Shown in pieces: positions 2,247 to 54,983 of a stretch of 64,000 bases of DNA; the first letter of the stretch is position 1; every line of letters starts with the position of its first letter. The translations under genes were made by a program, and so were the position numbers. This stretch comes from an uncultured Elusimicrobia bacterium (lineage in GTDB: Bacteria; Elusimicrobiota; Elusimicrobia; 2-01-FULL-59-12): positions 11,400 through 75,399 of the forward strand of contig CAZSAL010000004.1 of the NCBI GenBank assembly GCA_964604825.1, read 5' to 3'. The notes beneath the pieces were generated by a model. That model was given only the letters and a program-made list of their open reading frames with translations. It was not told the DNA's origin and did no database searches.

Positions 2247-2512
2247 TCACGAAAGAGGCAGTTACAAAAAAGGTAAAAGAAGTGTTTGAGCGCGAGTTCG
2301 ATATTGCACCGTCAGAAATGAAGCCGGGAGCCAATCTGTATAAGGATTTGGGCTTAGACAGTATCGACGCCATCGATCTGGTCGTCCGTTTGGAGGTCGA
2401 AACGGGATTAAAATTGAAAGCGACCGAGTTGAAATCTATCCGCACGTTTCAGGACGTGGTCGACGTTGTTTGGAAGAAACTCCAGAAGAAAAAAGCCGCC
2501 CGTGAGAAATGA
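2243..2512 (+). CDS. acyl carrier protein (second, tandem)
   Basis: LGLDSIDAIDLV motif; ATGA overlap with the preceding ACP. Confidence 0.8.
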   Translation: MITKEAVTKKVKEVFEREFDIAPSEMKPGANLYKDLGLDSIDAIDLVVRLEVETGLKLKATELKSIRTFQDVVDVVWKKLQKKKAAREK

Positions 2513-8554: not shown

Positions 8555-8561
8555 GGCGTTA

Positions 8562-12819: not shown

Positions 12820-12831
12820 TGTCGACACTAA

Positions 12832-13251: not shown

Positions 13252-13276
13252 CGATTCATGCAAAGGGGGATGTACT

Positions 13277-13870: not shown

Positions 13871-13913
13871 ATGAGAAAGGAACGGCATCCTTCATGACTG
13901 TGAGACATAGCTT

Positions 13914-15846: not shown

Positions 15847-17090
15847 AACGTCGGGTTGTTGTGACGGGAATGGCCGGGATTTCTCCCATTGGATCTGATT
15901 GGCCCACAGTGCGGAAACATCTGAGAGAGGGCATTTCGGGTGTTTCCTCGATGCCGGAGTGGGTAGGTTGTAAGGGCCTTCAAAGTCATCTAGTCGCAAA
16001 GGCCAAATTCGAGATTCCGCAAGAATGGCATAGAAAACAGATCCGCACAATGGGGCGCGTTGCGCTCATGGCGACTTATACAGCACAGGAAGCCCTTCGC
16101 CAAGCACGGCTACTGGATCATCCCTCACTAACTGACGGATCATGTGGAGTATCATACGGCTCCACAGAAGGTTCGCCGCCTGCAGTCGAAGAATACTTTC
16201 GCAGTCTCGCTATCAAGCGAAGCTTAAAAGGACTCTCACCGTACACCTATATACAGCTGATGAGCCACACATGCGCAGCAAATCTCAGTCAATTTTTCAA
16301 AATTAAGGGCCGTATCATCCCGACTTGTTCCGCGTGTACATCGGGGAGTCAGGGTATAGGGTACGCCTATGAAGCCATTAAAAACGGATATCAACGTGTC
16401 ATGGTCGGCGGGGGCGCCGAAGAACTACACCTGGCTGCAACCGTTGTCTTTGATGTTATGTTCGCGACTTCTACACAAAATCAAAAGCCTACGTCAACGC
16501 CCAGACCATTTGATAAACACCGAGACGGCCTCGTTATCGGTGAAGGGGCTGGAACATTGATTGTGGAAGACTTGGTTCACGCGAGAACCAGAGGCGCTAC
16601 CATTTATGCCGAGTTGGTAGGCTTTGGTACTAATAGCGATGGTGCTCATATTGTAAATCCCAGCATCGACGGTATGGAAGCCGCCATGCGACTTGCGCTT
16701 GACGACGCAAAGCTCCGACCCTCAGGCATCGGGTATGTCAACGCCCACGGCACTGCAACGGAGTTGGGTGATATTGCTGAAACTCAGGCGACTGCTCGAA
16801 TCTTCGGTAAACATATGCCCATTAGCTCTCTGAAGAGCTATATGGGTCATACCCTCGGAGCCTGCGGCGCTTTGGAGGCTTGGATGTCTATCGAGATGAT
16901 GCGAGAAGGATGGTTTGCTCCAACCCTTAATTTACGTGACGTCGACAAGCGTTGTGGCCGTTTGGACTACATTCGAAAGAAGCCTCGGGAGCTAAAAGTG
17001 GACTATGTGATGTCGAATAATTTTGCCTTCGGCGGCGTGAACACTTCACTCATCTTCAGGCGCTGGTCGGGTTCCGGTGGATTACACTGA
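15843..17090 (+). CDS. beta-ketoacyl-ACP synthase I/II (FabB/FabF-like)
   Basis: CSACTSGSQ active-site Cys, HGTATELGD and GHTLGACGA His motifs. Confidence 0.85.
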   Translation: MKRRVVVTGMAGISPIGSDWPTVRKHLREGISGVSSMPEWVGCKGLQSHLVAKAKFEIPQEWHRKQIRTMGRVALMATYTAQEALRQARLLDHPSLTDGSCGVSYGSTEGSPPAVEEYFRSLAIKRSLKGLSPYTYIQLMSHTCAANLSQFFKIKGRIIPTCSACTSGSQGIGYAYEAIKNGYQRVMVGGGAEELHLAATVVFDVMFATSTQNQKPTSTPRPFDKHRDGLVIGEGAGTLIVEDLVHARTRGATIYAELVGFGTNSDGAHIVNPSIDGMEAAMRLALDDAKLRPSGIGYVNAHGTATELGDIAETQATARIFGKHMPISSLKSYMGHTLGACGALEAWMSIEMMREGWFAPTLNLRDVDKRCGRLDYIRKKPRELKVDYVMSNNFAFGGVNTSLIFRRWSGSGGLH

Positions 17091-17101
17091 TTGCCAGAGG
17101 C

Positions 17102-17728
17102 TTGACCGCCGTATTTGCCCTTCACCTCCTGACCGCCGCAGCGATGGCCGCGACCGTGGAACTGATGCCGATGGTCGGATTCCAAGTTAACGGATCGAAG
17201 GATTTGGTAGGCCCGCGCAATGACCGAATGGACCTCAAAAACGTTGCTTTACGAGGAGTCTCAATCGGATATATGAACAAAGATAATGGAGAACTTGAAT
17301 TTTCCTGGACACGAGCGAACAGCTCAGCGCAAATTCAACGATCCGGCGGCTTCCCTTCGGACCAATTTGATGTGAAAATCGACCAATTTCACCTCAATGC
17401 TCTTTACATGTTTAGTGATGATGCCGTACAGCCCTTCATACTGATTGGCGCAGGGGCCACACACCTGGCGCCGGTAACAGACCGCTCACCGACGACCCTA
17501 TTTTCGATGGCACTTGGTGGCGGTGTGAAATGGCTTTGGAACGATTACATTGGCCTCCGGCTGGACGGCAGATGGACTCCAGCCCTTTCACCTCAGGGCA
17601 CGCATTTCTTCTGCGATAACACCGGAGACACGGGATGTTACAGCACGCAAGCCAATTCCTACGCCAGCCATGTTGTCCCCGCACTGCAAAGCTTTGAATT
17701 CACCAGCGGATTGCTCTTAAGGTATTAA
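17102..17728 (+). CDS. outer-membrane beta-barrel protein (OmpW/OmpA-like)
   Basis: Signal peptide, alternating amphipathic strands, C-terminal aromatic residue. Confidence 0.4.
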   Translation: MTAVFALHLLTAAAMAATVELMPMVGFQVNGSKDLVGPRNDRMDLKNVALRGVSIGYMNKDNGELEFSWTRANSSAQIQRSGGFPSDQFDVKIDQFHLNALYMFSDDAVQPFILIGAGATHLAPVTDRSPTTLFSMALGGGVKWLWNDYIGLRLDGRWTPALSPQGTHFFCDNTGDTGCYSTQANSYASHVVPALQSFEFTSGLLLRY

Positions 17729-18960
17729 TCTTTCTGCATTCGAACATGATCCGCGAGCGTCTTAACCGCACGCGCATGCTGTTTAACAAATGGATTAGTG
17801 TCATCCCAGACATATCCCGCCAGTACTGAGCAAATCTGCTTTTTGATTTTCGGGTCTTGTACCTTGGAGAAAAAGATCTCCTGCAAATCCCCGTTATACC
17901 AGCCGGTTACATAGGTCCGGAAAGTATTGATTCCACGCATCATGTAGTCAACATACTCCTTTTGGAAATCGACCTCTCCGCCCTTCAATTTACGCGAAAC
18001 TAACTTTGCCGCCACCGATCCTGACTCCATGGCGAAGGTGACTCCCGAAGAGAACACGGGATCAAGGAATTCCGTCGCATTTCCAACCGTCACATAGCCC
18101 TTATCAAAGAATTTAGTTGATGTAATGGCGTAGCCTTCGATTGTGCGGGGCTCAATGACCATTTCTTGGTCAATAAATCGATCACGTAAGTAACGGGAGT
18201 CCCTAATCAACGCTCGCATGCGATCCGAATTCCCGGAAGGGTACGTTTGAAAAAACTCAGGGCTCCCCACGTAACCAACGGAGGTATTTCCGTTTGAAAA
18301 GGGAATAATCCAAATCCAGACATCGCGCTTATGAACTACGACCGTGATCCTGTTTCCTCCAACACCTTCAGGCCGATGACTGTCTTTCATGTGCGTAAAA
18401 TGTGTTTTTCGAGGATCGAAGCTGGATCGCTTATTTAGACCCAGCATGGTTGGAACGACCCGTCCATATCCACTCGCGTCAATCACGTAGCGAGCACTGA
18501 TTTGCTTCCTGTGCCCGTTTGCATCTCGCAAAGTCGTTACAGACGGCTCATCATCATTGAATTGTATCGAGACGACTTCCATTTCGAATTCTATTTGAAC
18601 GCCTTTCCTGACCACTTCTTCTGCCAAGATCTGGTCAAAGTCAGCACGGGGTACTTGCCACGTCCATGACCAACCTTTCGTGAATTGTTCGGAGAAATTA
18701 AAGTCACAGGCTTTATCATCCATGAAGAATTGGGCACCATACTTCTTCTGAAACCCAGCCTTTTTGACGGCTTCTAGAAGCCCGGTCTCGTCCAAGTGGT
18801 CCATGACCCTCGGCAGGAGGCTCTCGCCTATTACAAATCGTGGGAATTTAGCCTTTTCGATAACCCGCACGTTAAGTCCGCTTTGATGAACGATAGAGGC
18901 AGCGATGCATCCGGCAGGCCCCGCTCCAATTACTAATACCTCTGTCTTTTCAATATCCAT
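17725..18960 (-). CDS. flavin-dependent halogenase
   Basis: N-terminal GAGPAG FAD motif and the WxWxIP signature (VWIWIIP) of flavin-dependent halogenases. Convergent with the cluster. Confidence 0.75.
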   Translation of the reverse strand: MDIEKTEVLVIGAGPAGCIAASIVHQSGLNVRVIEKAKFPRFVIGESLLPRVMDHLDETGLLEAVKKAGFQKKYGAQFFMDDKACDFNFSEQFTKGWSWTWQVPRADFDQILAEEVVRKGVQIEFEMEVVSIQFNDDEPSVTTLRDANGHRKQISARYVIDASGYGRVVPTMLGLNKRSSFDPRKTHFTHMKDSHRPEGVGGNRITVVVHKRDVWIWIIPFSNGNTSVGYVGSPEFFQTYPSGNSDRMRALIRDSRYLRDRFIDQEMVIEPRTIEGYAITSTKFFDKGYVTVGNATEFLDPVFSSGVTFAMESGSVAAKLVSRKLKGGEVDFQKEYVDYMMRGINTFRTYVTGWYNGDLQEIFFSKVQDPKIKKQICSVLAGYVWDDTNPFVKQHARAVKTLADHVRMQKD

Positions 18961-31676: not shown

Positions 31677-31783
31677 TTGGACCGTTGTACAGGCATTGAT
31701 CAGGAGACGAGCATGGAGCGCCAGAAAGGGTCTGGGTACCCCGGATTGGGTGGGGAACTTGGCAATCAGGGTAGGCAGGATAC

Positions 31784-31834
31784 GCATTTTGTAAACAAAA
31801 TGCCCTCGCCCCCGATTGCGGCCCTTCGGGCCGC
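31784..31834. promoter_or_regulatory. candidate oriT region: two perfect hairpins immediately upstream of mobC
   Basis: GCATTTTG-TAAA-CAAAATGC at 31784-31803 and GCGGCCC-TTC-GGGCCGC at 31818-31834, between the 33-nt motif and the mobC SD. Confidence 0.35.
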
Positions 31835-31886
31835 GGCTCTTGCGGGCTCCTGCCTTACCCTGATTGCCGACCTTAAGGAGGTTTCA

Positions 31887-32285
31887 ATGAAGAGAAAACC
31901 GGCATCCGAATTGTTGAGCAAGATTGTGAACGTGCGCGTACCTTATGACGAATACCATGGATTCCGCAAGCTGGCGGAGTATCTCAAAGTCAGCCCGGGC
32001 AGGTTGATCCGACACATCCTCCGCGAAAACTACATGGGACAATCCGATCCCTTGCCCGACCACATGAAAGGCTTCCGCGAGGCCGTTAACCAGCTGGCGG
32101 CAGCCGGCCGTAATCTCAATCAACTAGCCCGCGCTGCCAACAGCGGGCAACGGGTCGATCAAACTGAGGCCCAAGCTGTCATGGCTGAGATCCAAGCAGC
32201 GCTCAATCGAATGGGTGTGGAAATCAAAGCCTACATGTCGCGGCGCCGCAAACTGGAATGCGTTGAGCCCCGAAAAGCCGCTTGA
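31887..32285 (+). CDS. mobC: MobC-family relaxosome accessory protein
   Basis: MobC-like LNQLARAANSG core. Strong SD AAGGAGG 7 nt upstream of ATG 31887. The same frame is open back to 31677/31713, so a longer form cannot be excluded. Confidence 0.65.
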   Translation: MKRKPASELLSKIVNVRVPYDEYHGFRKLAEYLKVSPGRLIRHILRENYMGQSDPLPDHMKGFREAVNQLAAAGRNLNQLARAANSGQRVDQTEAQAVMAEIQAALNRMGVEIKAYMSRRRKLECVEPRKAA

Positions 32286-33243
32286 TTTCTCTTACCGGCC
32301 GCTCGTTAAAGGGCATGGCCTGGTCGTTGCCTTGCCGCTCGCAGAACGCCTGCGGGCGGCAAGGGGCGTTCCGCAGGCCGTGGTCAAAGTAGCTGGCTAC
32401 GGTCACGGGACCCCGGCAGCCAAGCGCCTCCTCCGATACATCAGCCGCAAAGGGGAATTGCCGCTCGAAACTGAATTGGGGGAGGTTCTGACCACCACCG
32501 ATGAACAGAAGGCCCTAGTGAATGATTGGGCCATCGATTTTGACGCACGAGGGGACAGCCGAGATACCGTTCACCTCATCTTCTCCATGCCGCCGGGGTC
32601 TTCTCCCGAAGCCTTGCGCCGCACCATCCGGACGGTTCTGCAGCGGCGGTTCCAGGGGCATGAGGCGGTCTTTGCCATCCATGAAGACAAGAAGCATCCG
32701 CATGCCCATGTGGTGGTCAAGATGTTCAATGTCGAAACTGAAAAGAAATTGCGCCTCAACCGACCCGACCTTTATCGCCTGCGCGAAATCTATGCTGAAG
32801 CCGCGCGAGAGGAAGGGGTTGAAATGGCCGTGTCACCCCGGGCCGCGCGGGGAATCGGACGAAAGGGCAGCCGTCGCGTCGCTCATCAGCTTCATCGCAA
32901 GGGGATCGTACCGCGCGCTGAGAAAGAGACCGCACGTGAAGTCCTTGAAAGTCTGGAAAAAGGCGATCTACGGGCGAAACCCTGGGAAGTCGCCATGCGG
33001 CGCCGCAATGACCTCGAAAGGCAAGCCTACCGAACCGAAGCCGAACGGCTCCGCACCGCCGCGCTCCAAAACGTCAAAGACAGGGACGCGCTCTTGAAGG
33101 CGGCGGCCGACCTCGAACGATTTTCCCGCGCGATGCCCACGCCCAAGACACTCCGCCAAACAATGATTGACCAGCTTCTCCAATCGCCGCGTCCCAAGAA
33201 TCCGGGATCCTCCCGGGACCACGACGGCGGTCTTGAGCGCTAA
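32215..33243 (+). CDS. conjugative relaxase (MobA/VirD2-like, MOBP/MOBQ-type)
   Basis: N-terminal Tyr region (VVKVAGYGHG) and histidine triad HEDKKHPHAHVVV. The exact start is uncertain because the ORF overlaps the end of mobC. Confidence 0.75.
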   Translation: MWKSKPTCRGAANWNALSPEKPLDFSYRPLVKGHGLVVALPLAERLRAARGVPQAVVKVAGYGHGTPAAKRLLRYISRKGELPLETELGEVLTTTDEQKALVNDWAIDFDARGDSRDTVHLIFSMPPGSSPEALRRTIRTVLQRRFQGHEAVFAIHEDKKHPHAHVVVKMFNVETEKKLRLNRPDLYRLREIYAEAAREEGVEMAVSPRAARGIGRKGSRRVAHQLHRKGIVPRAEKETAREVLESLEKGDLRAKPWEVAMRRRNDLERQAYRTEAERLRTAALQNVKDRDALLKAAADLERFSRAMPTPKTLRQTMIDQLLQSPRPKNPGSSRDHDGGLER

Positions 33244-43590: not shown

Positions 43591-44145
43591 ATGGCCACCA
43601 AAGCCGCAAAGACAACGAAAGAAAAAGTAGCGCCTGCGCCGGAGACCAAAACCCCGCCCGCCAAAGCTCCCGAGCCGACTCAACAGCCGAGTCCATCAAC
43701 GCCTGCGCCGCAGCAGACGTCTGTCGCCGATGCGCCCGCCGTATCCACACAAGCTTCCGTTGCGCCGCCGAATGGTGTTCGCATGCCGGCGATCAATGAC
43801 GTCCGCGTAGCGGGACGCCTCACTCGCGATCCCGTCATTCGGGAAGTCGGCAGCCAGAAAGTCGCCAACTTCGACATCGCCGTTGAGAAACGCTACCGCG
43901 ACGCACAGAACCAGTGGCAGAAGCAGGTCTCCTTCGTCCCCTGCGCCGTTTGGGGAGTCGTGGCCGACCGCGCGAGGGAATTCCTAAAGAAAGGCAGTCC
44001 GGTCTATCTCGAAGGACGGCTTCGCTCCCAGTCCTGGCAGACCCGCGATGGTCAGAAGCGTTCCATCATGCGTCTGGAAGCCTTCAAAGTGCAGTCGTTG
44101 GCCAGAGGGCAAGCGCGGAGCCAGGGACAGGAAGTCGGCGACTGA
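43591..44145 (+). CDS. ssb: single-stranded DNA-binding protein with a Pro/Ala-rich disordered N-terminal extension of about 65 aa
   Basis: SSB OB-fold core (RLTRDP...VWG...YLEGRL...W...). Lacks a canonical acidic C-terminal tail. Confidence 0.7.
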   Translation: MATKAAKTTKEKVAPAPETKTPPAKAPEPTQQPSPSTPAPQQTSVADAPAVSTQASVAPPNGVRMPAINDVRVAGRLTRDPVIREVGSQKVANFDIAVEKRYRDAQNQWQKQVSFVPCAVWGVVADRAREFLKKGSPVYLEGRLRSQSWQTRDGQKRSIMRLEAFKVQSLARGQARSQGQEVGD

Positions 44146-44154
44146 GGCTAAGCC

Positions 44155-44565
44155 ATGGTTGATACGAACCCAGCTCCAAATAATGCGTATCCGCCTGACG
44201 ACGTGTCCCGTGCAAATGACTTCCGCCTGGCGGGACGCGTCGCGGGCGATGCCATCTTCCGCGGTCTTGACGGGCGAAGGTTCCTCCAATTCCGCCTGGC
44301 CGTCGAAAGAGACTACAGGGATGTTTCGGACCGGGAAGAAAAGCAGGTCACCTATGTTCCGGTGGCCGTTGGGGGAACGTTGGCGACTTACTGCCGGCCA
44401 TTTCTGCGGGATGGGACCCCGATCTATATCGAAGGACGGGTGCACTCACATACCGTGAAAACTCCGGACGGCGGTCAACGTACTCAATTGCGCTTCGACG
44501 CCTTCAAGGTGCAGTCGCTCGCGCGGGGCCAAAGCCGGAGCCAGGGACAGGACATTGCAGACTAA
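44155..44565 (+). CDS. SSB-like OB-fold protein (paralogue 2)
   Basis: Paralogous to the upstream ssb; shares the C-terminal FKVQSLARGQ.RSQGQ tail. Confidence 0.65.
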   Translation: MVDTNPAPNNAYPPDDVSRANDFRLAGRVAGDAIFRGLDGRRFLQFRLAVERDYRDVSDREEKQVTYVPVAVGGTLATYCRPFLRDGTPIYIEGRVHSHTVKTPDGGQRTQLRFDAFKVQSLARGQSRSQGQDIAD

Positions 44566-44589
44566 ACAGCACCGTCGGGAGGTTTATCC

Positions 44590-44985
44590 ATGAATGACAC
44601 AGTTCGGAAACAAGCACCGCCGGGCCTTCTGACGCAGAAGGCTCCGCGGATGCTGTCGGTCAACAAGGTTCGTCTGGCAGGACGTCTGACCCAGGACCCG
44701 GAAATCCGGTCGGCGATCGGCGACAAAATGATCGTGCATTTGAATCTGGCACTTGAGCGTCCTTACCAAGGCAGTACCGGACATCTGCGACAAGAGCTCA
44801 CGTTTGTTCCGGTCACCGTTTGGGATAGCCTGGCGGACAGTGCGACCCGGGATCTCAAAAGGGGAAGTCCAATCTACGTTGAAGGCAGGCTTAAGAGTGA
44901 TCGATGGAAGGCCGGAAGCGGAGAGGTTTGTTCCGCGCTGAAAATCGAAGCCTCCAAACTCCAGATGCTTTCAGCGGCGGCTTAA
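44590..44985 (+). CDS. SSB-like OB-fold protein (paralogue 3)
   Basis: Paralogous OB-fold core (RLAGRLTQDPE...YVEGRL); divergent C-terminus. Confidence 0.65.
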   Translation: MNDTVRKQAPPGLLTQKAPRMLSVNKVRLAGRLTQDPEIRSAIGDKMIVHLNLALERPYQGSTGHLRQELTFVPVTVWDSLADSATRDLKRGSPIYVEGRLKSDRWKAGSGEVCSALKIEASKLQMLSAAA

Positions 44986-45764: not shown

Positions 45765-45959
45765 ATGGACAAAAAACCGACAATTCAGGAGCTGGAAGCT
45801 CTGCTAAACAGCGAAGAGGAGACTCCTATCCAGATTCTACCCAACGGGGAAATCCGACCTGTGGGCCAGGTGAACCCTGCAGATCTAGGAACAAAAAAAC
45901 CTCTGACGATGAAAGAAAATCTGGGGGGCGAGTACGGGGGGCAGCCTGGTGGATATTAA
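45765..45959 (+). CDS. small acidic protein (64 aa) ending in Gly-Gly-Tyr; candidate ubiquitin-like / Pup-like modifier or tag
   Basis: AGGAGG SD. C-terminus ...GGQPGGY. 11-nt overlap with the GTG start of the E2-like gene. Confidence 0.4.
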   Translation: MDKKPTIQELEALLNSEEETPIQILPNGEIRPVGQVNPADLGTKKPLTMKENLGGEYGGQPGGY

Positions 45960-46326
45960 CCGGATTCAGCGAGAATTTTTGGAAGCACAAAAGACGTTCG
46001 CGTATTTAGAACTGCATCCGACCGCAGATGGACGGGTATTCGCGAAAACTGCCCTTCAAACGTCCATTCAAATGTACGTTTTATCGATTAAATTCCCTGA
46101 CAATTACCCTTATGAAATGCCCAGCGTTTATGTTGATACGCCTCCAATCGCCATTTCACCGCACCGGTACAATAGCGGCAATATATGTTACCTGCATCAT
46201 GCGATGTGGAATCCCGGCATTCACCAACTTTCCTTTGTTATCGGACGCGCGGCAAAATGGTTAAACAAGTACGAAATTTGGAAACGCAATGGTGGCCAGT
46301 GGCCCGGCGCAGAGATAAAGCACTAA
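45949..46326 (+). CDS. ubiquitin-conjugating-enzyme (E2/UBC)-like protein with candidate catalytic Cys
   Basis: UBC-like HPN-region analogue FPDNYPYEMPSVYV and catalytic-Cys context NSGNICYLHH. Confidence 0.55.
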   Translation: MDINRIQREFLEAQKTFAYLELHPTADGRVFAKTALQTSIQMYVLSIKFPDNYPYEMPSVYVDTPPIAISPHRYNSGNICYLHHAMWNPGIHQLSFVIGRAAKWLNKYEIWKRNGGQWPGAEIKH

Positions 46327-46335
46327 GAGGTCATC

Positions 46336-46866
46336 TTGAAAATTGAATTTAAAACTCTAAATATGATGCAGCTCAGAAAATCTCCCGGAGAGGTCCTGGA
46401 TCGTGTTGCCCGAGATGGGGAGGTCTTCGTTGTGGAAAGGAACGGGCAGCCCAAGGCTTGTTTGGTCCCCGTCTCATTCCTCATGCCGGATGTATCGCCT
46501 GACCGCATTACCGATGAGCTAAACAAGCTCCGCGATAAAAATGAAAATTTCAAGGTGACCATTAGCGACGGCAAAGAGTTGGAAATCAGCTTCCACGAAG
46601 TCGCCGCGGGCGAAAACGTTGTGGTGACCGTCACTCTACCTCACGGATATCCCAATTCTGCCCCTCGAATTCAAGTTCCACAGTTGCCGTCGAACACGCC
46701 CAAACGATGGCAAGATGGTTCCTTGTCCATTTTTGGAGCGACGGCGACGTGGAATACAAAAAATCACGACGTCGTTTATGCGCTGGGCGAGGCGAGACGA
46801 TGGCTACGACAATATGCAAAGTGGCGCAAAAATGGTGAGTGGCCGACAACGCCGGAGGGCGCTTAA
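46336..46866 (+). CDS. E2-like paralogue lacking the catalytic Cys (UEV-like), with a Phd/YefM-antitoxin-like N-terminal extension
   Basis: LPHGYPNSAPRIQV and DGSLSIF (Cys replaced by Ser) are paralogous to the upstream E2-like. N-terminus QLRKSPGEVLDRVARDGEVFVVERNGQPKACLVPV resembles Phd/YefM. Confidence 0.5.
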   Translation: MKIEFKTLNMMQLRKSPGEVLDRVARDGEVFVVERNGQPKACLVPVSFLMPDVSPDRITDELNKLRDKNENFKVTISDGKELEISFHEVAAGENVVVTVTLPHGYPNSAPRIQVPQLPSNTPKRWQDGSLSIFGATATWNTKNHDVVYALGEARRWLRQYAKWRKNGEWPTTPEGA

Positions 46867-47720
46867 TGAGCGAGGACCGAATTTTTGAGCGAATCGAATC
46901 ACTTTTTGACATTCAGCTGTTAGCGCCCGTCAAAGTCCTAATCGCTGGATGTGGGTCCGGCGGCGGGAGCGTAGCCTTGGCTCTTGTCATGTCTGGGATC
47001 CGCCACTTCGCGCTATTAGATCGCGATGTGTTAGGCCCGGAAAATGTCATCCGGCATGTCTGCGGAAGACGGTTTATCGCCAGGAAAAAAGTGGACGCTC
47101 TCGCCGAAGTTCTGCTGGATCGAAACCCGAACGCCGATATACGAAAAATAGAAGCGGACATCATGAGCTATCCCGATATCGAAACGGAGATTAAAGCGGC
47201 GGATGTGGTCGTGCTCGCGACCGACAATGAACCGTCCCGCTACAAAATTAACGAAATCTGCGTTCGAAATGCCATCCCCTTTGTGGTCGGTCGCGTCTTC
47301 ACCCGAGGAATCGGCGGGGAAGTCTTCAGTTACAGGCCCGAATCGGGGGGATGTTTGGCTTGTCTTGAAGCGTCCTTACAGCGGACCCCGTTTAGAGAGG
47401 GCATCAAAGAGATTGACTTGGTTTCTGAGGAAGAACGGCAAAAAGTCTATGGGATGGAAATATCGGAAATAAAGGATTCCCCCGGACTGATCATCGACAT
47501 ATCCTTTATTACCTCCTTTCATGCGCGCTTTGTCTTAGACGCAGTCGCGCGACGGTTGAAAGAACGTCCGAAATATCTGAGCTTGATTGACGAAAATTAT
47601 CTCATTTGGGGAAATCGTCCCACCCACCCCTTTAAAAGGCATTTTCAGGTGCAGCGAATCATTCTGAATCGCCAAGAGGCTTGCGGAGTTTGTTCCGGGA
47701 AGGTTGGGGCCGATGTTTAG
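46839..47720 (+). CDS. E1-like ThiF/MoeB-family activating enzyme
   Basis: Rossmann GCGSGGG motif and a ThiF-like central region (ATDNEPSRYKINE). Confidence 0.8.
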   Translation: MADNAGGRLMSEDRIFERIESLFDIQLLAPVKVLIAGCGSGGGSVALALVMSGIRHFALLDRDVLGPENVIRHVCGRRFIARKKVDALAEVLLDRNPNADIRKIEADIMSYPDIETEIKAADVVVLATDNEPSRYKINEICVRNAIPFVVGRVFTRGIGGEVFSYRPESGGCLACLEASLQRTPFREGIKEIDLVSEEERQKVYGMEISEIKDSPGLIIDISFITSFHARFVLDAVARRLKERPKYLSLIDENYLIWGNRPTHPFKRHFQVQRIILNRQEACGVCSGKVGADV

Positions 47721-48615
47721 ATCAAAAACTTTGCAGATTCGCGTGTCGATCGCGAAAAAGGCTCTTGAGGCCATCTTTGACGAATGCGACCGGTTTGATA
47801 TGGATGAAACGGGTGGACGAATTATCGGCGACTATCGAAAAAAAGATTTGCGGTATGACATCGAGGTTCGAGGGGTCATTGGGCCGGGTCCCAATGCCAA
47901 GCGAACGGCCACGAGTTTTTTTCAGGACGGGGATTATCAGGAAAAGGTGTTCCGGTCTGTTGAACAAAGTCATCCGGATATCGAACATCTGGGTAATTGG
48001 CACACGCATCATGTGAACGGCTTGTCCACGCTCAGCTCGGGAGATAAAGCAACTTACCAAAACATCGTGAATCATGATCAACACAATACTGACTTCTTTT
48101 ATGCAATTCTGGTCGTCCGGAAAACTCCCGGCCGAAATCAACGCTACGACGTCAAACACTATTTCTTCCGACGTGATGATCGCGCAGTTTATGAGATACC
48201 CGACTACGAGGTTCAGATCGTCGATACGCCCATTCTTAGCCCGCTGCTCTCAGAAGGAACCGTTTCTGCGCCCACCCCATCGCGGCAATACGATGTTCTA
48301 GGCTACGCCAACCAGGAACGCGTCAGAGATCAGGAATTCTTTTCCGAGTTCTTTCCGGCGTTCAGACCCTTATTGTCCAAGAGCACGGGCACTTTCTATT
48401 GGAAAGGAAAATTGGACCTAATCGATGGGCGCGCAATCGATGTTCTGGCCATGGAAATCGCCGGCACATCGTCTTATTCCGTTACCGTGTCAGGACAAAA
48501 GATACCCACCTTGGACACCATCGCAAATTATAGGGACCGTGCTTTTAAATCAGCCCGGCAGGCCGTCATGGATCTGGAGAGAGATATGAATCAAGAAATG
48601 TACCGCAAGAAATGA
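47704..48615 (+). CDS. JAB/MPN (JAMM) metalloprotease-domain protein
   Basis: Upstream Glu, then HTHHVNGLSTLSSGD (HxH...SxxD JAMM-like motif). Confidence 0.7.
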   Translation: MGPMFRSKTLQIRVSIAKKALEAIFDECDRFDMDETGGRIIGDYRKKDLRYDIEVRGVIGPGPNAKRTATSFFQDGDYQEKVFRSVEQSHPDIEHLGNWHTHHVNGLSTLSSGDKATYQNIVNHDQHNTDFFYAILVVRKTPGRNQRYDVKHYFFRRDDRAVYEIPDYEVQIVDTPILSPLLSEGTVSAPTPSRQYDVLGYANQERVRDQEFFSEFFPAFRPLLSKSTGTFYWKGKLDLIDGRAIDVLAMEIAGTSSYSVTVSGQKIPTLDTIANYRDRAFKSARQAVMDLERDMNQEMYRKK

Positions 48616-48619
48616 CCCC

Positions 48620-49465
48620 ATGAACATTATTACGGTCAATGTGGGTCAAGGCGCTCTCTCCATAGTCCGGCATCAGACGGAAGCCATTATTGTAGATTCG
48701 AGAATTCCTCCGTCGGATGACGACACTGTAGCCTTTGTCAAAGGAATGCTGGCCACGTCATTGAAAGGCCACTATGTGAAAGGGTTAGTATTGACAGGAT
48801 TTGATAGCGACCATCTGGATGTTGTCGGTCTCTCGATCGTTCTCCCCAAGTATCGGCCCGATTGGGTCATGTATCCCAAATACTATAAAGACAGCGAAGA
48901 GGCCAAATTGGCGTTTGATCTCATCACCGAACAAGAAGACCTTCGACGTGGTTCCGCCAATCCGTTGGAAAGAGTATCCGTCCGGCTTGACGTGCTGTCC
49001 AACCGCAAACTTTCCGGTCTCTCCTCCAACTTCGACTTTGAGCTATTCTCGCCGCACATTGCGGATATGGATAATTCGAATAATTCCAGCATTGTTCTCA
49101 AATTGACAGGAATAGGGGCAGGTGGATTTTCCTACTTGATCACTGGCGATACGGAAAACGAACGATGGAAAACGATCAGCGAATTGTTCGGAGGTGCCTT
49201 GAAGGCACATGTTTTGGCAGCGCCCCATCATGGGTCAAAAAATACCACTCATCCCGCCTCATTGCTTCATATCAATCCGCACACCGTTCTGATCAGCGCC
49301 GGCGTAGACAGTCAATATGGCCATCCCAGTCCAGAAGCCGTTAAAGTCTATCAACGAGTTGCAAGATATGTTTTCTCGACCAATATGGGAAACGGCGTTT
49401 CACTCCTCACTCAACCAGGTCTCACCGAGATCACGACGACACTAATCCCGAGTTCGGATGCATGA
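48620..49465 (+). CDS. metallo-beta-lactamase-fold protein (ComEC C-terminal-domain-like)
   Basis: LTGFDSDHLD and APHHGSKNT motifs of the ComEC-type MBL domain. Confidence 0.6.
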   Translation: MNIITVNVGQGALSIVRHQTEAIIVDSRIPPSDDDTVAFVKGMLATSLKGHYVKGLVLTGFDSDHLDVVGLSIVLPKYRPDWVMYPKYYKDSEEAKLAFDLITEQEDLRRGSANPLERVSVRLDVLSNRKLSGLSSNFDFELFSPHIADMDNSNNSSIVLKLTGIGAGGFSYLITGDTENERWKTISELFGGALKAHVLAAPHHGSKNTTHPASLLHINPHTVLISAGVDSQYGHPSPEAVKVYQRVARYVFSTNMGNGVSLLTQPGLTEITTTLIPSSDA

Positions 49466-50121: not shown

Positions 50122-50292
50122 CGTTAGCCAGTGAATCTTAAGACCTAAATCCTCCTTTCTCTGGTTCCGTCCGAGACTCCTCGGGGCCAAATAGAACGAT
50201 TTCCGGTTCCCTCATCCTCTCTTTAGCAAACCCTATCAGGTTCTAATCGTACGACGAACTTCAACATTATTTTCCGTCTCGCTTTTTCATTC

Positions 50293-50544
50293 TAAGGGTT
50301 GGCGGGTGGAGGCATAGCGGGCAGGCGACACAAAATCGTTGCCCCCTGCGCTTGCGGGGCCCCACCATTTTGTCCCGCCGGATCGCGCCCGCTACTCCCT
50401 ACCCCACGGACGGCCGTCAACCGTGGGGTGTCGCTCGATCCGCCAGACGTCTGGCGGATCGGTTAAACCTCCTCCCTCCAACCCTTTACCCGAATTGTGG
50501 CTCGCCAGATGCGTGGCGGGACTACTTCACGAGGAGACAATCAC
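50293..50544 (+). ncRNA. unclassified structured leader element, copy 1 (multi-hairpin, anti-SD-containing), immediately upstream of a hypothetical gene
   Basis: About 80% identical to 53248..53494. Conserved hairpins with compensatory changes. CCUCCUCC anti-SD-like segment and a downstream GAGGAG SD. Confidence 0.5.
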
Positions 50545-51180
50545 ATGAATAACGAAGTGCCGGTTAAAGAAGTGGCCGCCAAGATGCTGGCGGTCTGCAA
50601 CAGCCTGGGATGGAAGGTTGATATGCCATCGGATGAATTCAGTCACGTGTACCTGAAGGCGCAGGTCGAGGGGTTTCCATCCTCCTACGCCTCACTCACC
50701 TATGGACGGTATCCCTGCGAAGGACGGATCACGGTCACGGCCAATTCCAACCATGATTCGGCCATCTACCGCTACGGAGAAAAGCACCTGAGCATCAGCG
50801 TGAGCGCCAGTCGACCCGCCGAGGCAATCCTGAAAGAAATCCAGCGGCGGTTTGTTCCGACCTATCTTGAGATCGCCCGGAAAGCGGAAGAAATCCATCA
50901 CCGGCACGAGGAATACAGCCGGAAACTGGAGTCCTGTATGGGAGATTTGAAGGGGGAACCCCTGGATGAGCCCGAAAGGACAAATGGGAAGGTTCGTTTT
51001 CACTTGGACGATATCTGGGGAGCGGTGCAGTATGCGAGCGATGACCAACTCGCCATCGACTTTCATAATGTCCCGGCGGAGAAAGTAGGCCGCATCCTGG
51101 CGATTCTGCGGGAGAAGGTTGGTTCACTGAAGGAGGAATCCCTTGTATCGGATTCAGTGAGAGGTAACTGCCATGAATAG
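50545..51180 (+). CDS. hypothetical protein (211 aa)
   Basis: ATG 50545 follows SD GAGGAG; the rest of the listed ORF lies inside the structured leader. Confidence 0.5.
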   Translation: MNNEVPVKEVAAKMLAVCNSLGWKVDMPSDEFSHVYLKAQVEGFPSSYASLTYGRYPCEGRITVTANSNHDSAIYRYGEKHLSISVSASRPAEAILKEIQRRFVPTYLEIARKAEEIHHRHEEYSRKLESCMGDLKGEPLDEPERTNGKVRFHLDDIWGAVQYASDDQLAIDFHNVPAEKVGRILAILREKVGSLKEESLVSDSVRGNCHE

Positions 51181-51475
51181 AAAATATCTAGCGCTCCACG
51201 AAGCGATCAGCGAAGGCCGCGCGGAGTGGGGCAATGTTCAGATTCCGTCCAGCTTGTTACCTCCTGGACGCAAGTGCCTCAATCAGTTCTGCGAAAGTCT
51301 CTTCTGCAGTCGCCATCACCCGGTCCCGTCATTGGCCGAGGAGCGATGGTACGTCAAACGGTTCCTTGGAGTGAGCTGGATCTTTTTCGTACCTCGGAAT
51401 CATTGGCGTCGGTGGTGCTTGCTTGCCGCGTTTAAATCGCACCGTGACGCGCAGGTTTACCTGAACACGCTGTAG
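51173..51475 (+). CDS. small hypothetical protein with a CxxxxC...CxxHH cluster
   Basis: ATGA-type coupling with the upstream ORF; Cys/His cluster KCLNQFCESLFCSRHH. Confidence 0.35.
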   Translation: MNRKYLALHEAISEGRAEWGNVQIPSSLLPPGRKCLNQFCESLFCSRHHPVPSLAEERWYVKRFLGVSWIFFVPRNHWRRWCLLAAFKSHRDAQVYLNTL

Positions 51476-51539
51476 GGAAGTTTAACCACAGAACCTGGGA
51501 GGCGCTTAACCGCCTTTCGTATATGGGTTGTATGCAGTG

Positions 51540-51590
51540 AGGGCGGGTTGTTCACCAGACCGTTGGTGGATGGCCCGCCTTCTTTATTGT
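51540..51590 (+). terminator. candidate rho-independent terminator
   Basis: GGGCGGG ... CCCGCC stem with an inner CACCA/TGGTG helix, followed by TTCTTTATTGTC. Confidence 0.45.
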
Positions 51591-51637
51591 CTGACTCGCT
51601 TCCTCTGGAGGCGAGAACTTAAAACAAGGAGAACAAC

Positions 51638-53119
51638 ATGCCAACGAAAGAAGTCGCACAGCTGCAAATGGCCGTAAAAGAGATCGTGGAAGGGTCGAAT
51701 TGCCGCAGCCGGATGAATCCCGGCAAGTTCGAGGAGCTGGTGCAGAACGTCAAGAAAGTGGGGATTTTGGAACCGGCGCTTGTGAGGAGGGACGCGGAAG
51801 GGAAGGTCATTCTGATCGCAGGGCATCGGCGCCTGGCGGCGGCCAAAGCCGCTGGGTTGGAAAATATACCGGTGCGGCTCTTGGAAGTGGATGAGAAGCA
51901 GGCTGCCGAAATACAGACCTTGGAGAATCTCCACCGGGAAGACCTTGCGTCGATGGATGAAGCTCGGGCCTTCAAACAACTCCTGGATGGGGGTTCGCAC
52001 ACGATCGAGTCACTGGCCGCTCAAATAGACAAGTCACCTACCTACGTCTATCGGAGCCTGAGGTTGCTCGAATTGCCGGCCAAAGCAATCAAGGCTCTGG
52101 AGGAGGGGATTATCACCACCGGCCACGCACAGCAAATCCTGCGCGCCCCGGAGAAAAACGCCGAAGCGCTCGTGGCCTTTGCGACCACACGTATGGAATG
52201 GCAGAAACGCTATCCCAGCGTTTCGGAACTGCGGGAATACGTCGAGAAACGCATCGCCAAGGACCTTGCGGCGGCGCCGTTTCCGAAAGACGTACCGTAC
52301 GCAGAACAGGTCGCGTGCAACGCCTGCCCGTTCAATACCGGCAACCAGAACGTGCTCTTTGATGGCGCAACCAAGGGTCACTGTACGAACCCCGGCTGCT
52401 TCAACCGCAAAACAGCCGCCTACTACAAAGAGCTACAGACCACGGCAGCCGCCAGGTACGCGGGGCTGAAGTTCCTGGGAACCGCTTCAGATAACGGGTA
52501 CGCTTCGGGCCCCCAACAGATCAAAGGGGCGTATGTGGTGGAAAAGCTCGACGACAAAATCAAGAAGGCCATTCAGGCCAAACCGGATCAGTTCGGGTTC
52601 GGGATCGTAAAGCCCTCACGCTGGGGAGGGAAGAAGGCGCGTGTCGTTCTTCTCTGCAAAGAAGCGAAGTTGGCGGGGGTGAAGGAAGTGAATCGTGCAC
52701 CGGCCTATCGGGAACAAACCCCTGAAGAGCGCGAACGAGAGGAGTTTATTCGAAGCCATGTTCAAAGAACCTACGCTGCGCTTGCCGTCGAAATGCTGGA
52801 GTTTGATAAAGAGGACCTCCTCGCGCTTCTACAGGAGGAATGGGACGATGATTGGAAACGTCGCCGGGTCCTGCCATTCCTGGAAGCCTCGGGAGTTTCA
52901 GAATCAGATGCAGAGGAGGGTAAGTTTCCGGCAGAGGTTCTGGAAAAGAAAAGCCGGGATTCGTTGATCCAACTCGTGCTCTTGTCGATGCTCAATGACA
53001 ACAGCGATTCGATCGGCTCACTTTTGGAGGTCAAAAAAGTGAAAGTGCAGGAAGTGCTCAATAAAGCTCAGGCCGAGGCGCTCAAGGTCTGGAACGAGAA
53101 GCATCCCCAGGCCGCATAA
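51638..53119 (+). CDS. ParB/Spo0J/KorB-like N-terminal-domain protein
   Basis: ParB N-terminal domain (ILEPALVRR...IAGHRRLAAAKAAGLENIPV); SD AAGGAG. Confidence 0.75.
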   Translation: MPTKEVAQLQMAVKEIVEGSNCRSRMNPGKFEELVQNVKKVGILEPALVRRDAEGKVILIAGHRRLAAAKAAGLENIPVRLLEVDEKQAAEIQTLENLHREDLASMDEARAFKQLLDGGSHTIESLAAQIDKSPTYVYRSLRLLELPAKAIKALEEGIITTGHAQQILRAPEKNAEALVAFATTRMEWQKRYPSVSELREYVEKRIAKDLAAAPFPKDVPYAEQVACNACPFNTGNQNVLFDGATKGHCTNPGCFNRKTAAYYKELQTTAAARYAGLKFLGTASDNGYASGPQQIKGAYVVEKLDDKIKKAIQAKPDQFGFGIVKPSRWGGKKARVVLLCKEAKLAGVKEVNRAPAYREQTPEEREREEFIRSHVQRTYAALAVEMLEFDKEDLLALLQEEWDDDWKRRRVLPFLEASGVSESDAEEGKFPAEVLEKKSRDSLIQLVLLSMLNDNSDSIGSLLEVKKVKVQEVLNKAQAEALKVWNEKHPQAA

Positions 53120-53140
53120 GTCATTCCCGTCGCACTGAAG

Positions 53141-53182
53141 GCCGGCTCTCTCCCAAACGGAGAGGGTCGGCCTTTTTTTTCG
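53141..53182 (+). terminator. rho-independent terminator
   Basis: 14-bp GC-rich stem (GGCCGGCUCUCUCC / GGAGAGGGUCGGCC, two G-U pairs), 5-nt loop, then a run of 9 T. Confidence 0.7.
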
Positions 53183-53247
53183 ACTGCATACCTCGAAAAC
53201 GGAAATCCTGATTTATCGCGTCGTGGTTGGAAAGCGTGCTATCGAGC

Positions 53248-53494
53248 ATTCCCATTGTAAGGGTTGCCGGAAGGAGGCATAGCGGACAGACGGAACAAAA
53301 TCGTTGCCCCCTGCGGGGCCCCACCATTTTGTTCCGTCTGATCGCGTCCGCTACTCCTTACCCCACGGGCGGCCGTCAACCGTGGGGTGTCGCCCGGCCC
53401 CTTCCGGGGCCGCGTTAAACCTCCTCCCGTCAACCCTTTGCCTTTCAGTGGCTCGCCAGACACACGGCGAGACTATCACGCGAAGGAGAAAGAC
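53248..53494 (+). ncRNA. unclassified structured leader element, copy 2
   Basis: Paralogous to 50293..50544; same helices with compensatory substitutions. The anti-SD CCUCCUCC opposes the downstream GAAGGAG SD. Confidence 0.5.
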
Positions 53495-53776
53495 ATGACG
53501 ACCATACGAGACAACATGAAGGACCTGGTGCAGCGGATGCTGGTGACCAAGGGGATTACTTCTGAAGAACAGGCGTATGAATGGGCCTGTGGGATTGCCG
53601 ATCACCTGGGATTGGATGGGTTGGAGGGGGATCAAATCGGGCGGCTGGCCTGTGTGATCCTCACCACATTGAAGGGAACGACGACCCTTTATCACAAGCC
53701 GGCCGAGGTGCCGGTGGTGTGGATCAACTTTGACGATCTCAGGCGCGAAGGCGTCGAGTCCGTGGAGGTGTTCTAG
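53495..53776 (+). CDS. hypothetical protein (93 aa)
   Basis: ATG 53495 after SD GAAGGAG; the rest of the listed ORF lies inside the structured leader. Confidence 0.45.
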   Translation: MTTIRDNMKDLVQRMLVTKGITSEEQAYEWACGIADHLGLDGLEGDQIGRLACVILTTLKGTTTLYHKPAEVPVVWINFDDLRREGVESVEVF

Positions 53777-53778
53777 CC

Positions 53779-54453
53779 ATGGAAACCACCCAACAAGCTG
53801 ACTTGATCCGGGATTTGCCGCCCTGCATTCGTCCTCTGTCGCGACTGGGAACCTTGGGTGTGGAAGCGCTCAAGGAGGCCGAGCTGCTTTCGCTGGCGGT
53901 CCGGTCACGCTCGCTGCGCTGGCCAGAGGAAGTGCTGGGTCGTCACAGTGTGAAGGAATTGCTGGGGATGCCCTGGCAGAGACTGGCTTCGCTGCGCGGG
54001 ATAAGCCATGCGGGAGCGGCGGCGCTTTTAGCTTCGGCGGAACTGGTACGGCGCGCGTCGGGCCAACCGGATGCGGGCCGGCCCGTTCTTCAATCGGTGG
54101 GGGATGTGGCGGTGCAGGCTCTGGAGATACGAGACAAGAAAAAAGAGTACCTGCTCGCCTTCTTTCTGAATGCCCGGCATCAGCTGATCGCTAAAGAGAT
54201 CATCTCGATCGGGACGCTGACGGCGTCTCTGGCACATCCTCGAGAGATCTTTGCTCCGGCGATTGGACAGGCCGCGGCGGGGGTCGTGCTCGTGCATAAC
54301 CACCCCTCGGGAGATCCTTCACCCTCGGATGAAGACGTCCGACTGACCAAGCGCATCGCACAGGCGGGCCAGATCATGGGCATAGAGTTGCTCGACCACC
54401 TTATTCTGGCTTCGTCTGGAACTTTTTCGTTTAAGACCAGCGGTGCGCTCTGA
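53779..54453 (+). CDS. radC: RadC-like JAB-domain protein
   Basis: HNHPSGDPSPSDEDVRLT JAMM motif and RadC family C-terminus. Confidence 0.85.
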   Translation: METTQQADLIRDLPPCIRPLSRLGTLGVEALKEAELLSLAVRSRSLRWPEEVLGRHSVKELLGMPWQRLASLRGISHAGAAALLASAELVRRASGQPDAGRPVLQSVGDVAVQALEIRDKKKEYLLAFFLNARHQLIAKEIISIGTLTASLAHPREIFAPAIGQAAAGVVLVHNHPSGDPSPSDEDVRLTKRIAQAGQIMGIELLDHLILASSGTFSFKTSGAL

Positions 54454-54983
54454 TGGATGCTCGAACGTTTACGGAGCTTCATTTGGATTGCAGGAAACGT
54501 GTGCTTTTCGGGATTCGAGGGTATGTACGCAATCACGATGAGGCGGAGGATGTGACGGCTTCGGCTTTTGCGACCGCCTTTCAAAAGCGCAAGAGCTTCC
54601 GTAATGAGTCATCCTTCTACACCTGGGTTTATCGGATCGCCGTCAACCGTGCGACGTCGTCCCTGCGCAGGCGGCGGACGGTATCGCTGGATCTGCTTGA
54701 GGGAGCGTTACCGGATTCATTGATCGAATCGGACTTGATGGACCGCGCGATTGACCGGGAGGAGTGCTGCCGGAAGCTGCGCTGGGCGCTTCGGAAAATT
54801 CCGGTCTATTACCGTCAGGTCCTGGTGGACCATTTCGTCCGGGGCTTTTCGATCCGGCAGATCGCCCGGCGTCATCGCATTCCGATCGGAACGGTGTTGA
54901 GCCGGATCTTCAGCGCCAAGCGGCGGCTTCGGCGGGCGTGGAAAGGCAGGGAATCAATAAGAGCCGACTTAAGAGGGTCGTAA
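54453..54983 (+). CDS. ECF-type RNA polymerase sigma factor
   Basis: Sigma70 region 2 (YTWVYRIAVNR) and region 4 HTH (FSIRQIARRHRIPIGTVLSRI). Confidence 0.8.
   Translation: MDARTFTELHLDCRKRVLFGIRGYVRNHDEAEDVTASAFATAFQKRKSFRNESSFYTWVYRIAVNRATSSLRRRRTVSLDLLEGALPDSLIESDLMDRAIDREECCRKLRWALRKIPVYYRQVLVDHFVRGFSIRQIARRHRIPIGTVLSRIFSAKRRLRRAWKGRESIRADLRGS

Follow-up and report, generated by a model that had tools for sequence, protein, structure and literature searches.

Conjugative plasmids can be transcribed while their DNA is still single-stranded, and such early expression lets them make anti-defence and establishment proteins before the host reacts. Experimental knowledge of the single-stranded DNA (ssDNA) promoters concerned is so far confined to IncF and IncI plasmids of enterobacteria, and such promoters are recognized chiefly through homology or as long hairpins. 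In the F plasmid, two Frpo copies that are 92% identical and lie ~5 kb apart are each required for early expression of the downstream leading operons (PMC9849209); one F leading operon carries ssb and the ParB-like yfjB. Folded as ssDNA, the Frpo and ssi elements (class 1: F Frpo1 and Frpo2; ColIb-P9 ssi1-3) let host RNA polymerase transcribe before complementary-strand synthesis, and as duplex they are inactive. Frpo transcription is reported to be stimulated by SSB, a protein that binds single-stranded DNA (PMC11541004), and according to a preprint an F ssDNA promoter additionally holds up synthesis of the complementary strand by forming a structural roadblock (bioRxiv 10.64898/2026.01.09.698686). 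The three classes mapped in pESBL/F are large stem-loops that reconstitute both the -35 and the -10 box (PMC12672017). Because the class 2 and 3 promoters of pESBL/F (PMC12672017) and the Frpo' candidates (Samuel et al. 2024, PMC11541004) show no homology to Frpo, the ssDNA promoters are a polyphyletic class, and these members too are stable ssDNA folds upstream of zygotically induced operons. Here we analyze a 64-kb stretch of DNA (64,000 nt, hereafter the window) from an uncultured Elusimicrobia bacterium (GenBank assembly GCA_964604825.1, contig CAZSAL010000004.1), in which an integrated conjugative element contains two copies of a ~250-nt structured element. Judged from its sequence and modelled fold, each copy is probably an ssDNA promoter that resembles Frpo in logic, differs from it in architecture and lacks homology to it.

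The analysis was performed entirely in silico, via folding, alignment, motif scans and database searches over the 64-kb window and related metagenome contigs. Within the window, blastn located the two copies at 50285-50544 and 53250-53494, both in plus orientation and 79% identical over ~250 nt (85% mean column identity when the flanks are included), which bears out the two ~250-nt copies described by an earlier sequence-only reading of this DNA; blastn detected no third copy in the 64 kb. Copy 1 is followed by a 211-aa gene, a 100-aa gene and a ParB-like gene, and copy 2 by a 93-aa gene, RadC and an extracytoplasmic function (ECF) sigma gene. The 211-aa and 93-aa protein families are narrow, with members 60-100% identical: the 211-aa family had no match in genome contigs, and in metagenome contigs it was found at 13 loci only. 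The contigs of the relatives of these two proteins yielded 22 further distinct copies of the element, every one of which occupies one of the same two positions as the window copies. The 22 copies analyzed below consist of the two window copies and the 20 relatives that are complete at the 5' end (those of loci L003 and L017, cut short or lacking the left arm, were left out), and they belong to two sequence types: the W-type, which includes the window copies, and the L4-type (loci L004, L016 and L020).

Folding reproduced every helix that the sequence-only reading had drawn, with z scores of -5 to -7 against dinucleotide shuffles. Behind a closing helix (P1) the core forms a four-way branched structure: P2 is a long hairpin with an ACAAAAT/ATTTTGT stem and, in copy 1, a 6-nt apical insertion; the P3 hairpin has the stem CCCCACGG/CCGTGGGG; and P4 is unrelated in sequence between copies 1 and 2. 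A separate 3' hairpin lies 5' of the Shine-Dalgarno sequence (SD) and the ATG. In a sliding fold of the 64 kb, the two elements were the strongest ssDNA-fold outliers (z of -6.9 and -6.1, minus strand). Moreover, in an alignment of 17 W-type sequences on the minus strand (alignment A4), 97.3% of the pair cells were canonical vs 40-50% when the partners were slid by 1-3 columns as a control, and two-sided changes were found in 16 of the 55 pairs, with none of 500 shuffles reaching the observed values.

The L4-type has the same architecture as the W-type, but its closing helix (ACAGTCGCCGC / GCGGCGACTGT), junctions and hairpins are all different, and what the two types have in common is confined to the flanks: a hexamer with its discriminator, a GGCT hairpin, the pentamer GACTA and the SD. 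Furthermore, two copies, B_L010 (L010 5943-6186) and B_L012 (L012 7058-7301), combine a W-type frame with an L4-type P2 hairpin (GCATAAACGGGGCCCCTGCCCCATTTATCC), and the internal hairpins therefore act like exchangeable modules. The interior of the element has been replaced or recombined between types with the architecture retained. Selection on pairing across ~190 nt, including such compensatory helix replacement, is not needed by duplex operators, and this is one reason why we find it highly improbable that the copies are protein-binding repeats, be it ParB/KorB-type centromere or operator sites flanking parB or accessory sites of the relaxosome. That reading draws on the position of the copies on either side of the ParB-like gene, on the richness of the element in palindromes (e.g., ACGGCCGT) and on the resemblance of the P2 stem ACAAAAT/ATTTTGT to the inner repeat GCATTTTGT/ACAAAATGC of the origin of transfer (oriT) described below. 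However, loci that lack parB (L010, L024 and L025) keep both copies, and an asymmetry of mismatches between strands, as found here, would be meaningless for sites recognized as duplex.

Such an asymmetry was evident from several comparisons of the two strands. The minus strand was more stable than the plus strand in 22/22 copies, with mean fold energies of -114 vs -104 kcal/mol under RNA parameters and -64.6 vs -57.3 under DNA parameters. In a strand-neutral test, in which folding was run with G-U pairs forbidden and mismatches were counted in symmetric internal loops, the plus-strand reading contained A.C 28 times vs G.U 7 times, plus 22 C.C and 16 C.U; read on the minus strand, the same internal-loop mismatches are G.T, G.G and G.A. 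These three are the best-tolerated mismatches in nearest-neighbour data. In particular, one P1 pair on the minus strand is AU in eight sequences, GU in six and GC in three, and those six are A.C mismatches on the plus strand. The two strand-specific consensus folds have 43 pairs in common, and among these G.T occupied 11 cells (9 columns) on the minus strand vs 1 cell (1 column) on the plus strand. The strand-specific consensus folds as such were not decisive as a test of strand, each gathering its own invariant terminal wobbles, and were replaced by the internal-loop and shared-pair analyses. Thus there is a moderately strong case that the minus strand is the strand selected to pair.

This preference bears directly on the proposal of the sequence-only reading that the element is a ligand- or temperature-responsive leader RNA with mutually exclusive anti-SD and SD pairing. 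More broadly, a promoter upstream of the element might give rise to a plus-strand leader RNA (a riboswitch, a thermosensor or a leader that binds protein) which controls translation via pairing of CCUCCUCC with the SD. Indeed the plus strand folds strongly as RNA into the same helices, with covariation, and the element lies immediately 5' of an SD and an ATG; moreover, some helix ends have wobbles that exist on the plus strand only, e.g., U.G closing P3 and G.U closing P4 at their bases. The anti-SD segment was confirmed in part: like W-type copies generally, both window copies contain CCTCCTCC, a complement of the SD, but this segment is absent from the L4-type, where GCCTCTGCGGCGACTG takes its place and CCUCCUCC is lost. 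The pairing is therefore not conserved, and we rejected it. Since the L4-type changes the closing helix and all junctions while keeping the architecture, there is no conserved aptamer core or expression platform. In addition, i) the internal C.A, C.C and C.U mismatches would be destabilizing on the plus strand; ii) no plus-strand promoter was detectable upstream, and copy 2 lies directly behind a strong terminator; iii) cmscan against Rfam returned nothing relevant, either for the whole window at gathering thresholds or for 50200-53600 at E values up to 10, the sole match being a chance Chlorobi-1 hit inside parB; and iv) the most conserved motif of the flanks reads as a -10 element with discriminator on the minus strand only. 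No terminator was found between the element and the ATG. A leader RNA is thus unlikely. The results favour what the sequence-only reading had named as its alternative, a DNA structure in the leading region of a conjugative element that serves for single-strand initiation or resembles a promoter.

The flank motif is located immediately 5' of P1, where the plus strand reads CCATTNTAA, i.e., TANNAT on the minus strand. Across the 22 copies, positions T1, A2, A5 and T6 of this hexamer are invariant (22/22 each), A4 is present in 18/22, and position 3 is free (T 8, C 6, G 4, A 4); the four bases 3' of it follow the pattern (G/C/T) G (G/A) A. Such a conservation profile is that of a putative sigma-70-family -10 hexamer followed by a GGGA-type discriminator; in copy 2 the region reads TACAATGGGA. 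The closing helix ends exactly at the first T of TANNAT: T-12 is the last pair of P1 (A4 columns 39/233, AU in 17/17), and in partition-function folds of the ssDNA T-12 was paired (unpaired probability 0.06) and A-11 mostly unpaired (0.67). A fork junction whose duplex extends to -12 and whose stretch from -11 to -7 is single-stranded is bound by RNA polymerase with sub-nanomolar Kd, even if it carries a mutated -35, and GGGA at -6/-3 raises the binding (PMC3526302). Furthermore, the combination of ATNNTA with a 12-nt arm that has a distal complement occurs at only these two sites on both strands of the 64 kb, and 10-12 nt separate the end of P1 from GGCT in 22/22 copies, across both sequence-unrelated types. 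Of the sigma-70-type elements facing the gene, the -10 and the discriminator are thus conserved at the P1 fork; the -35 is absent in the W-type and merely -35-like in the L4-type, in which TG at -15/-14 and TTGAYG or TTGCAC 20-22 nt upstream can be read from the sequences. Two other candidate boxes were rejected: TTGACG in the minus-strand P3 loop as a -35, since it is not conserved, and minus-strand TAGTCY (the complement of GACTA) as a -10, since its position 6 is C in many copies.

Taken on its own, a TANNAT on the minus strand might belong to an ordinary leftward duplex promoter for an antisense or small RNA, or the whole element might be a minus-strand non-coding RNA. The L4-type even carries an extended -10 (TGTTANNAT), and the ~20 nt that follow the hexamer on the minus strand show moderate conservation. 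However, a leftward transcript would omit the structured core and leave its covariation unexplained; the left neighbour varies by locus (defence cargo or the parB terminator) and offers no coherent target; the W-type has neither -35 nor TG; and a minus-strand RNA spanning the element would need a promoter inside the downstream coding regions, which are unrelated between copies 1 and 2. We accordingly give very little credence to either version. A consensus scan for duplex sigma-70 promoters on either strand of the two intergenic regions found none.

On the gene-proximal side, start sites were placed by the canonical spacing from -10 to +1. With +1 on the first G of GGC, the mRNA would begin with the 3' hairpin as its 5'-terminal stem-loop, and since the predicted start lies downstream of the closing helix, CCTCCTCC would not be in the RNA at all. 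The left flank may additionally pair with the right hairpin in a helix that we call P0: pairing is stronger between the left and right flanks of one and the same copy than in non-cognate combinations (-10.8 vs -8.4 kcal/mol; 18/22 copies; Wilcoxon p=1.4e-4, copies not being independent), which tentatively suggests P0 as the downstream duplex that closes a bubble of ~10-11 nt.

The conservation of this module also bears on whether the folded minus strand merely recruits RNA polymerase or a primosome as an sso/ssi-type site, solely for priming the complementary strand. A strand-specific ssDNA fold with an RNA-polymerase-type hexamer fits that reading equally, priming would benefit from a pair of sites on the same transferred strand, and Frpo has been described as serving both transcription and primer synthesis (PMC12672017; bioRxiv 10.64898/2026.01.09.698686). 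On the other hand, the start-proximal hairpin, GACTA, SD and ATG are conserved at fixed spacing, needless for a pure primer; at every locus each of the two copies directly precedes an operon of the same orientation; and those operons have no other detected promoter. Known systems of that kind are the ssoA sites of rolling-circle plasmids and integrative conjugative elements, which likewise are strand-specific folded ssDNA of ~200 nt and form an RNA polymerase promoter by intrastrand pairing. They differ in yielding a short primer that ends at CS-6 and is uncoupled from any SD or gene, and neither RSB nor CS-6 was found on the folded strand here. The hallmark of ssoA is a CS-6 of sequence TAGCGT in the terminal loop; the W-type does contain TAGCGG, a resemblance that we rejected given that it lies on the plus strand, in a junction, and is absent in the L4-type. 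Priming as the sole role is thus distinctly unlikely, and it may well be an additional function rather than a rival. No rival accounts jointly for a putative minus-strand -10 and discriminator at the foot of a covarying helix and for the fixed spacing to the gene-proximal module.

From the observed structure, covariation, strand asymmetry, motif conservation with its geometry, and genomic context, we infer which strand is transferred, that RNA polymerase uses it, where transcripts would start and when. The proposed sequence of events is as follows: i) during conjugation the minus strand of the integrated element would enter the recipient as ssDNA; ii) its ~190-nt core would fold, with a 20-bp P1 stacked on P2 and with P3 and P4 completing a very stable clamp, so that P1 would hold in duplex two segments ~190 nt apart; iii) on the 3' side of P1, TANNAT and GGRA would follow, with T-12 as the last pair and A-11 to T-7 unpaired as a substrate of sigma-A region 2/1.2, and on the 5' side a ~11-nt non-complementary template stretch would lead to GGCT(T)CGCC, where P0 may close the bubble; iv) host RNA polymerase would bind this pre-opened bubble with no DNA melting and start at the G of GGC; v) the transcript, of mRNA sense, would consist of a 5'-terminal hairpin, GACUA, a strong SD and the gene, copy 1 driving the 211-aa / 100-aa / ParB-like operon and copy 2 the 93-aa / RadC / ECF-sigma operon; and vi) complementary-strand synthesis would abolish the fold, leaving in duplex a hexamer that faces away from the genes and a gene side without a -10. 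Expression would therefore be transient and end at strand conversion. The stable P2-P4 clamp may also slow complementary-strand synthesis, and the transcript may prime it, by analogy with Frpo of F.

Beyond the promoter function itself, we consider the chances evenly balanced that the elements represent a new architectural class, built as a clamp of several modular hairpins that brings two remote stretches of the transferred strand together and so keeps a transcription bubble open permanently. In that case the modelled bubble would comprise a duplex reaching to -12, TANNAT-GGRA as the single-stranded branch on the non-template side, a template branch that is not complementary to it and possibly a downstream duplex.

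The direction of transfer was read from an oriT-like locus directly upstream of the mobilization genes, where a 20-nt outer inverted repeat (GGCAATCAGGGTAGGCAGGA / TCCTGCCTTACCCTGATTGCC) surrounds an inner 9-bp repeat and a GC hairpin. It is the third strongest ssDNA-fold outlier in the window, behind both elements, and the 7-mer ACAAAAT/ATTTTGT occurs both in its inner repeat and in the W-type P2 stem. Beside the inner repeat, opposite plus-strand positions 31774-31783, the minus strand reads GTATCCTG followed by CC. We take this to fit the MOBP nic consensus YATCCTG/Y (the slash marking the nick, which here would fall between GTATCCTG and CC), with the nick 8 nt from the repeat in an arrangement as in RP4. 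With the consensus on the minus strand, that strand would therefore be transferred 5' to 3' leftwards with the relaxase entering last, and it would consequently be the template of all plus-strand genes; we infer on this ground that the minus strand, the one selected to pair, is the transferred strand. Provisionally, the order of entry would be nic, the type I restriction-modification (R-M) module, the left end joined to the right end, RadC, copy 2, ParB and copy 1.

Several points weigh against an ssDNA promoter of this design. First, known ssDNA promoters are single long stem-loops that reconstitute both boxes (PMC12672017), and the present architecture has no experimental precedent. Second, the plus strand also folds well (z about -7), and the call of the strand rests on internal positions and on related sequences whose counts are not independent. 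Third, W-type copies have no recognizable -35 (none at 16-18 nt), copy 1 and the L4-type copies form only a weak P0, and the model does not explain the function of the invariant GACTA. Finally, the transferred strand is derived from an oriT consensus rather than a mapped nick, and the elements would lie ~13-17 kb behind nic in transfer order, after the type I R-M module (a figure that assumes circularization with putative borders near 19 kb and 54.5 kb).

Compared with the Frpo/ssi elements, the window copies are alike in several respects: the element is non-coding, measures ~250-330 nt, belongs to the strand that is transferred (here presumed) and recurs in front of establishment operons of the same orientation; its two copies have diverged and are spaced by a few kb; the downstream genes include ParB-like ones and ones from the neighbourhood of SSB; the element ranks among the strongest ssDNA-fold outliers of the region, a criterion also used in PMC12672017; and, as proposed here, the logic of transcription before complementary-strand synthesis is the same. 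The differences lie in the architecture and in the host. Frpo is one long imperfect hairpin with both -35 and -10 in the stem (PMC9849209, PMC12672017), F Frpo2 folding as one hairpin of ~320 nt, whereas the present elements are multi-branched clamps with a predicted heteroduplex bubble at the base, a single-stranded putative -10 and discriminator and, in the W-type, no -35. The hosts of Frpo are enterobacterial MOBF/MOBP plasmids; the present host is an integrated element with a MOBP relaxase, and the elements are known from metagenomic sequence alone. Homology to F Frpo or ColIb-P9 ssi was not found: a blastn search of the element against PLSDB (72,556 plasmids) gave no match, and one against the F leading region nothing significant. 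Both F Frpo copies (L059 4542-4571 and 9932-9961) do contain 31 nt that are 81% identical to the 3' arm of P2 (GCGGGG..TTTTGTTCC) in opposite orientation, a resemblance that is not significant (E=0.04 in a 13-kb target with 23 queries). A simple consensus search of F did not locate the Frpo boxes.

The class 2 and 3 promoters and Frpo' candidates differ from the present elements in much the same way: they are stem-loops with -35 and -10 boxes, from enterobacterial plasmids and with starts mapped by 5'-RACE, whereas the present ones are branched, with a fork and a bubble, and come from metagenomes. In geometry, the predicted fork resembles the synthetic fork-junction and bubble templates (PMC3526302), which share the duplex to -12, the single-stranded -11 to -7, GGGA at -6/-3 and a downstream duplex near +1 to +3, and whose high affinity is largely independent of the -35, with TACAATGGGA in copy 2 as the corresponding stretch. 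Those templates consist of two artificial strands; here one natural DNA strand would form the equivalent intramolecularly.

If the proposed promoters are real, early expression from the incoming strand extends to integrative conjugative elements of distant, uncultured bacteria, and the description would be the first of an ssDNA promoter from an integrated conjugative element in an uncultured soil-type lineage. A folded single strand that offers RNA polymerase a pre-melted bubble would be a physical solution unlike that of Frpo, and it would supply a searchable design rule, i.e., a -10 with discriminator at the foot of a long-range helix on a known transferred strand. Moreover, an ECF sigma among the first products would hint at a transcription cascade triggered by entry.

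Table 1. Coordinates of the predicted features in the window (strand is that on which the feature is read; promoter parts, start sites and P0 are putative).
Feature	Position	Strand	Details
Copy 1, putative -10 TAGAAT and discriminator GAAA	50285..50294	-	T-12 opposite plus-strand 50294, T-7 opposite 50289; GAAA opposite 50285-50288
Copy 1, closing helix P1	50294-50312 with 50468-50486		from folding
Copy 1, clamp	50294..50486	-	P1 encloses P2 (50317-50392), P3 (50401-50429) and P4 (50437-50460)
Copy 1, template branch and predicted mRNA 5' end	50487..50547	+	unpaired ~11 nt (50487-50497); start near G 50499/50500
Copy 1, predicted 5'-terminal hairpin	50499-50522	+	GGCTCGCC..GGCGGGAC
Copy 1, downstream signals	50520-50524; 50531-50536; 50545	+	GACTA; SD GAGGAG; ATG of the 211-aa gene
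Copy 2, putative -10 TACAAT and discriminator GGGA	53250..53259	-	hexamer opposite plus-strand 53254-53259; GGGA opposite 53250-53253
Copy 2, closing helix P1	53259-53277 with 53420-53438		from folding
Copy 2, clamp	53259..53438	-	P1 encloses P2 (53282-53351), P3 (53360-53388) and P4 (53395-53412)
Copy 2, template branch and predicted mRNA 5' end	53439..53497	+	unpaired 53439-53449; +1 at G 53450; 5' hairpin 53450-53473
Copy 2, downstream signals	53471-53475; 53483-53488; 53495	+	GACTA; SD AAGGAG; ATG of the 93-aa gene
Copy 2, helix P0 (tentative)	53231..53248 with 53450-53466	-	left flank (..GCTATCGAGCA) with 5' arm and loop of the right hairpin
oriT-like region	31761..31870	-	inner 9-bp inverted repeat 31784-31803; directly upstream of the mobC/nikA-like gene and the relaxase
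Intrinsic terminator 3' of parB	53137..53175	+	17-bp stem and T-run; separates the copy-2 operon from upstream transcription

A JGI metagenome contig of 151 kb contains the window. The conjugative element sits beside a chromosomal aryl-polyene-like cluster (1-18960). After this cluster, the gene order is RmuC, an SMC-like ATPase and a type I R-M system, then a MobC/NikA-like gene (31888-32285), a MobP-type relaxase (32215-33243), VirB4 to VirB11 and VirD4; three tandem SSB paralogues (43591-44985) lie directly 3' of virD4, and an E2/E1/JAB/MBL module lies 3' of the SSB genes and 5' of copy 1. From MobC through the ECF sigma, the plus strand carries all genes of the conjugative element. Neither an integrase nor an excisionase was found within the apparent element (window 19000-54500). 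Gene order beyond radC (an ECF sigma, a response regulator, a PorV-like gene and others) is the same in all relatives and does not mark the right border; in particular, the ECF-type sigma gene (54453-54983) overlaps the radC stop codon and keeps its position in all relatives. The 211-aa (50545-51180) and 93-aa (53495-53776) proteins had no Pfam, NCBIfam or PHROG match, and their AlphaFold2 models, of moderate confidence (pLDDT 66 and 74, respectively), gave no Foldseek match in the PDB with E<0.01.

Pattern searches beyond the relatives added no further copy. The W-type hairpin pattern had no match in viral contigs, and the 25 matches of the 3'-module pattern there were all due to chance, with similarity confined to the pattern. 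In 185,579 species genomes, the right-arm pattern matched four times: the one match inspected (L057, an Acidobacteriota metagenome-assembled genome) lacks the element, and the other three (Bacillus, Halolactibacillus and Neobacillus contigs) are presumed to be chance. Among the relatives, the copy at L017 58-360 has its left P1 arm and hexamer replaced by unrelated sequence, with the remaining W-type element intact; it may be decayed, or an assembly chimera on a 1.4-kb contig.

The slot between the SSB genes and copy 1 (45949-49465) holds variable defence cargo, and the same slot is used in L005, L009, L023 and L024. In the window it contains the E2/E1(ThiF)/JAB/MBL genes, with a weak 6A-MBL-like match; in the relatives, AbiE (L023), a SLFN/Fic-like protein (L005), a type I R-M system (L024), and an OLD-family ATPase with a UvrD-like helicase (Gabija-like; L009) were found. 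A DUF4326 gene, absent in the window, is located 5' of the 211-aa gene in most relatives. The ParB-like gene is split by an insertion in two relatives (L009 8332-14336; L023 9559-13174): both insertions carry three tandem tyrosine-recombinase genes (a recombinase-in-trio element), and that of L009 also carries an insertion-sequence (IS) transposase.

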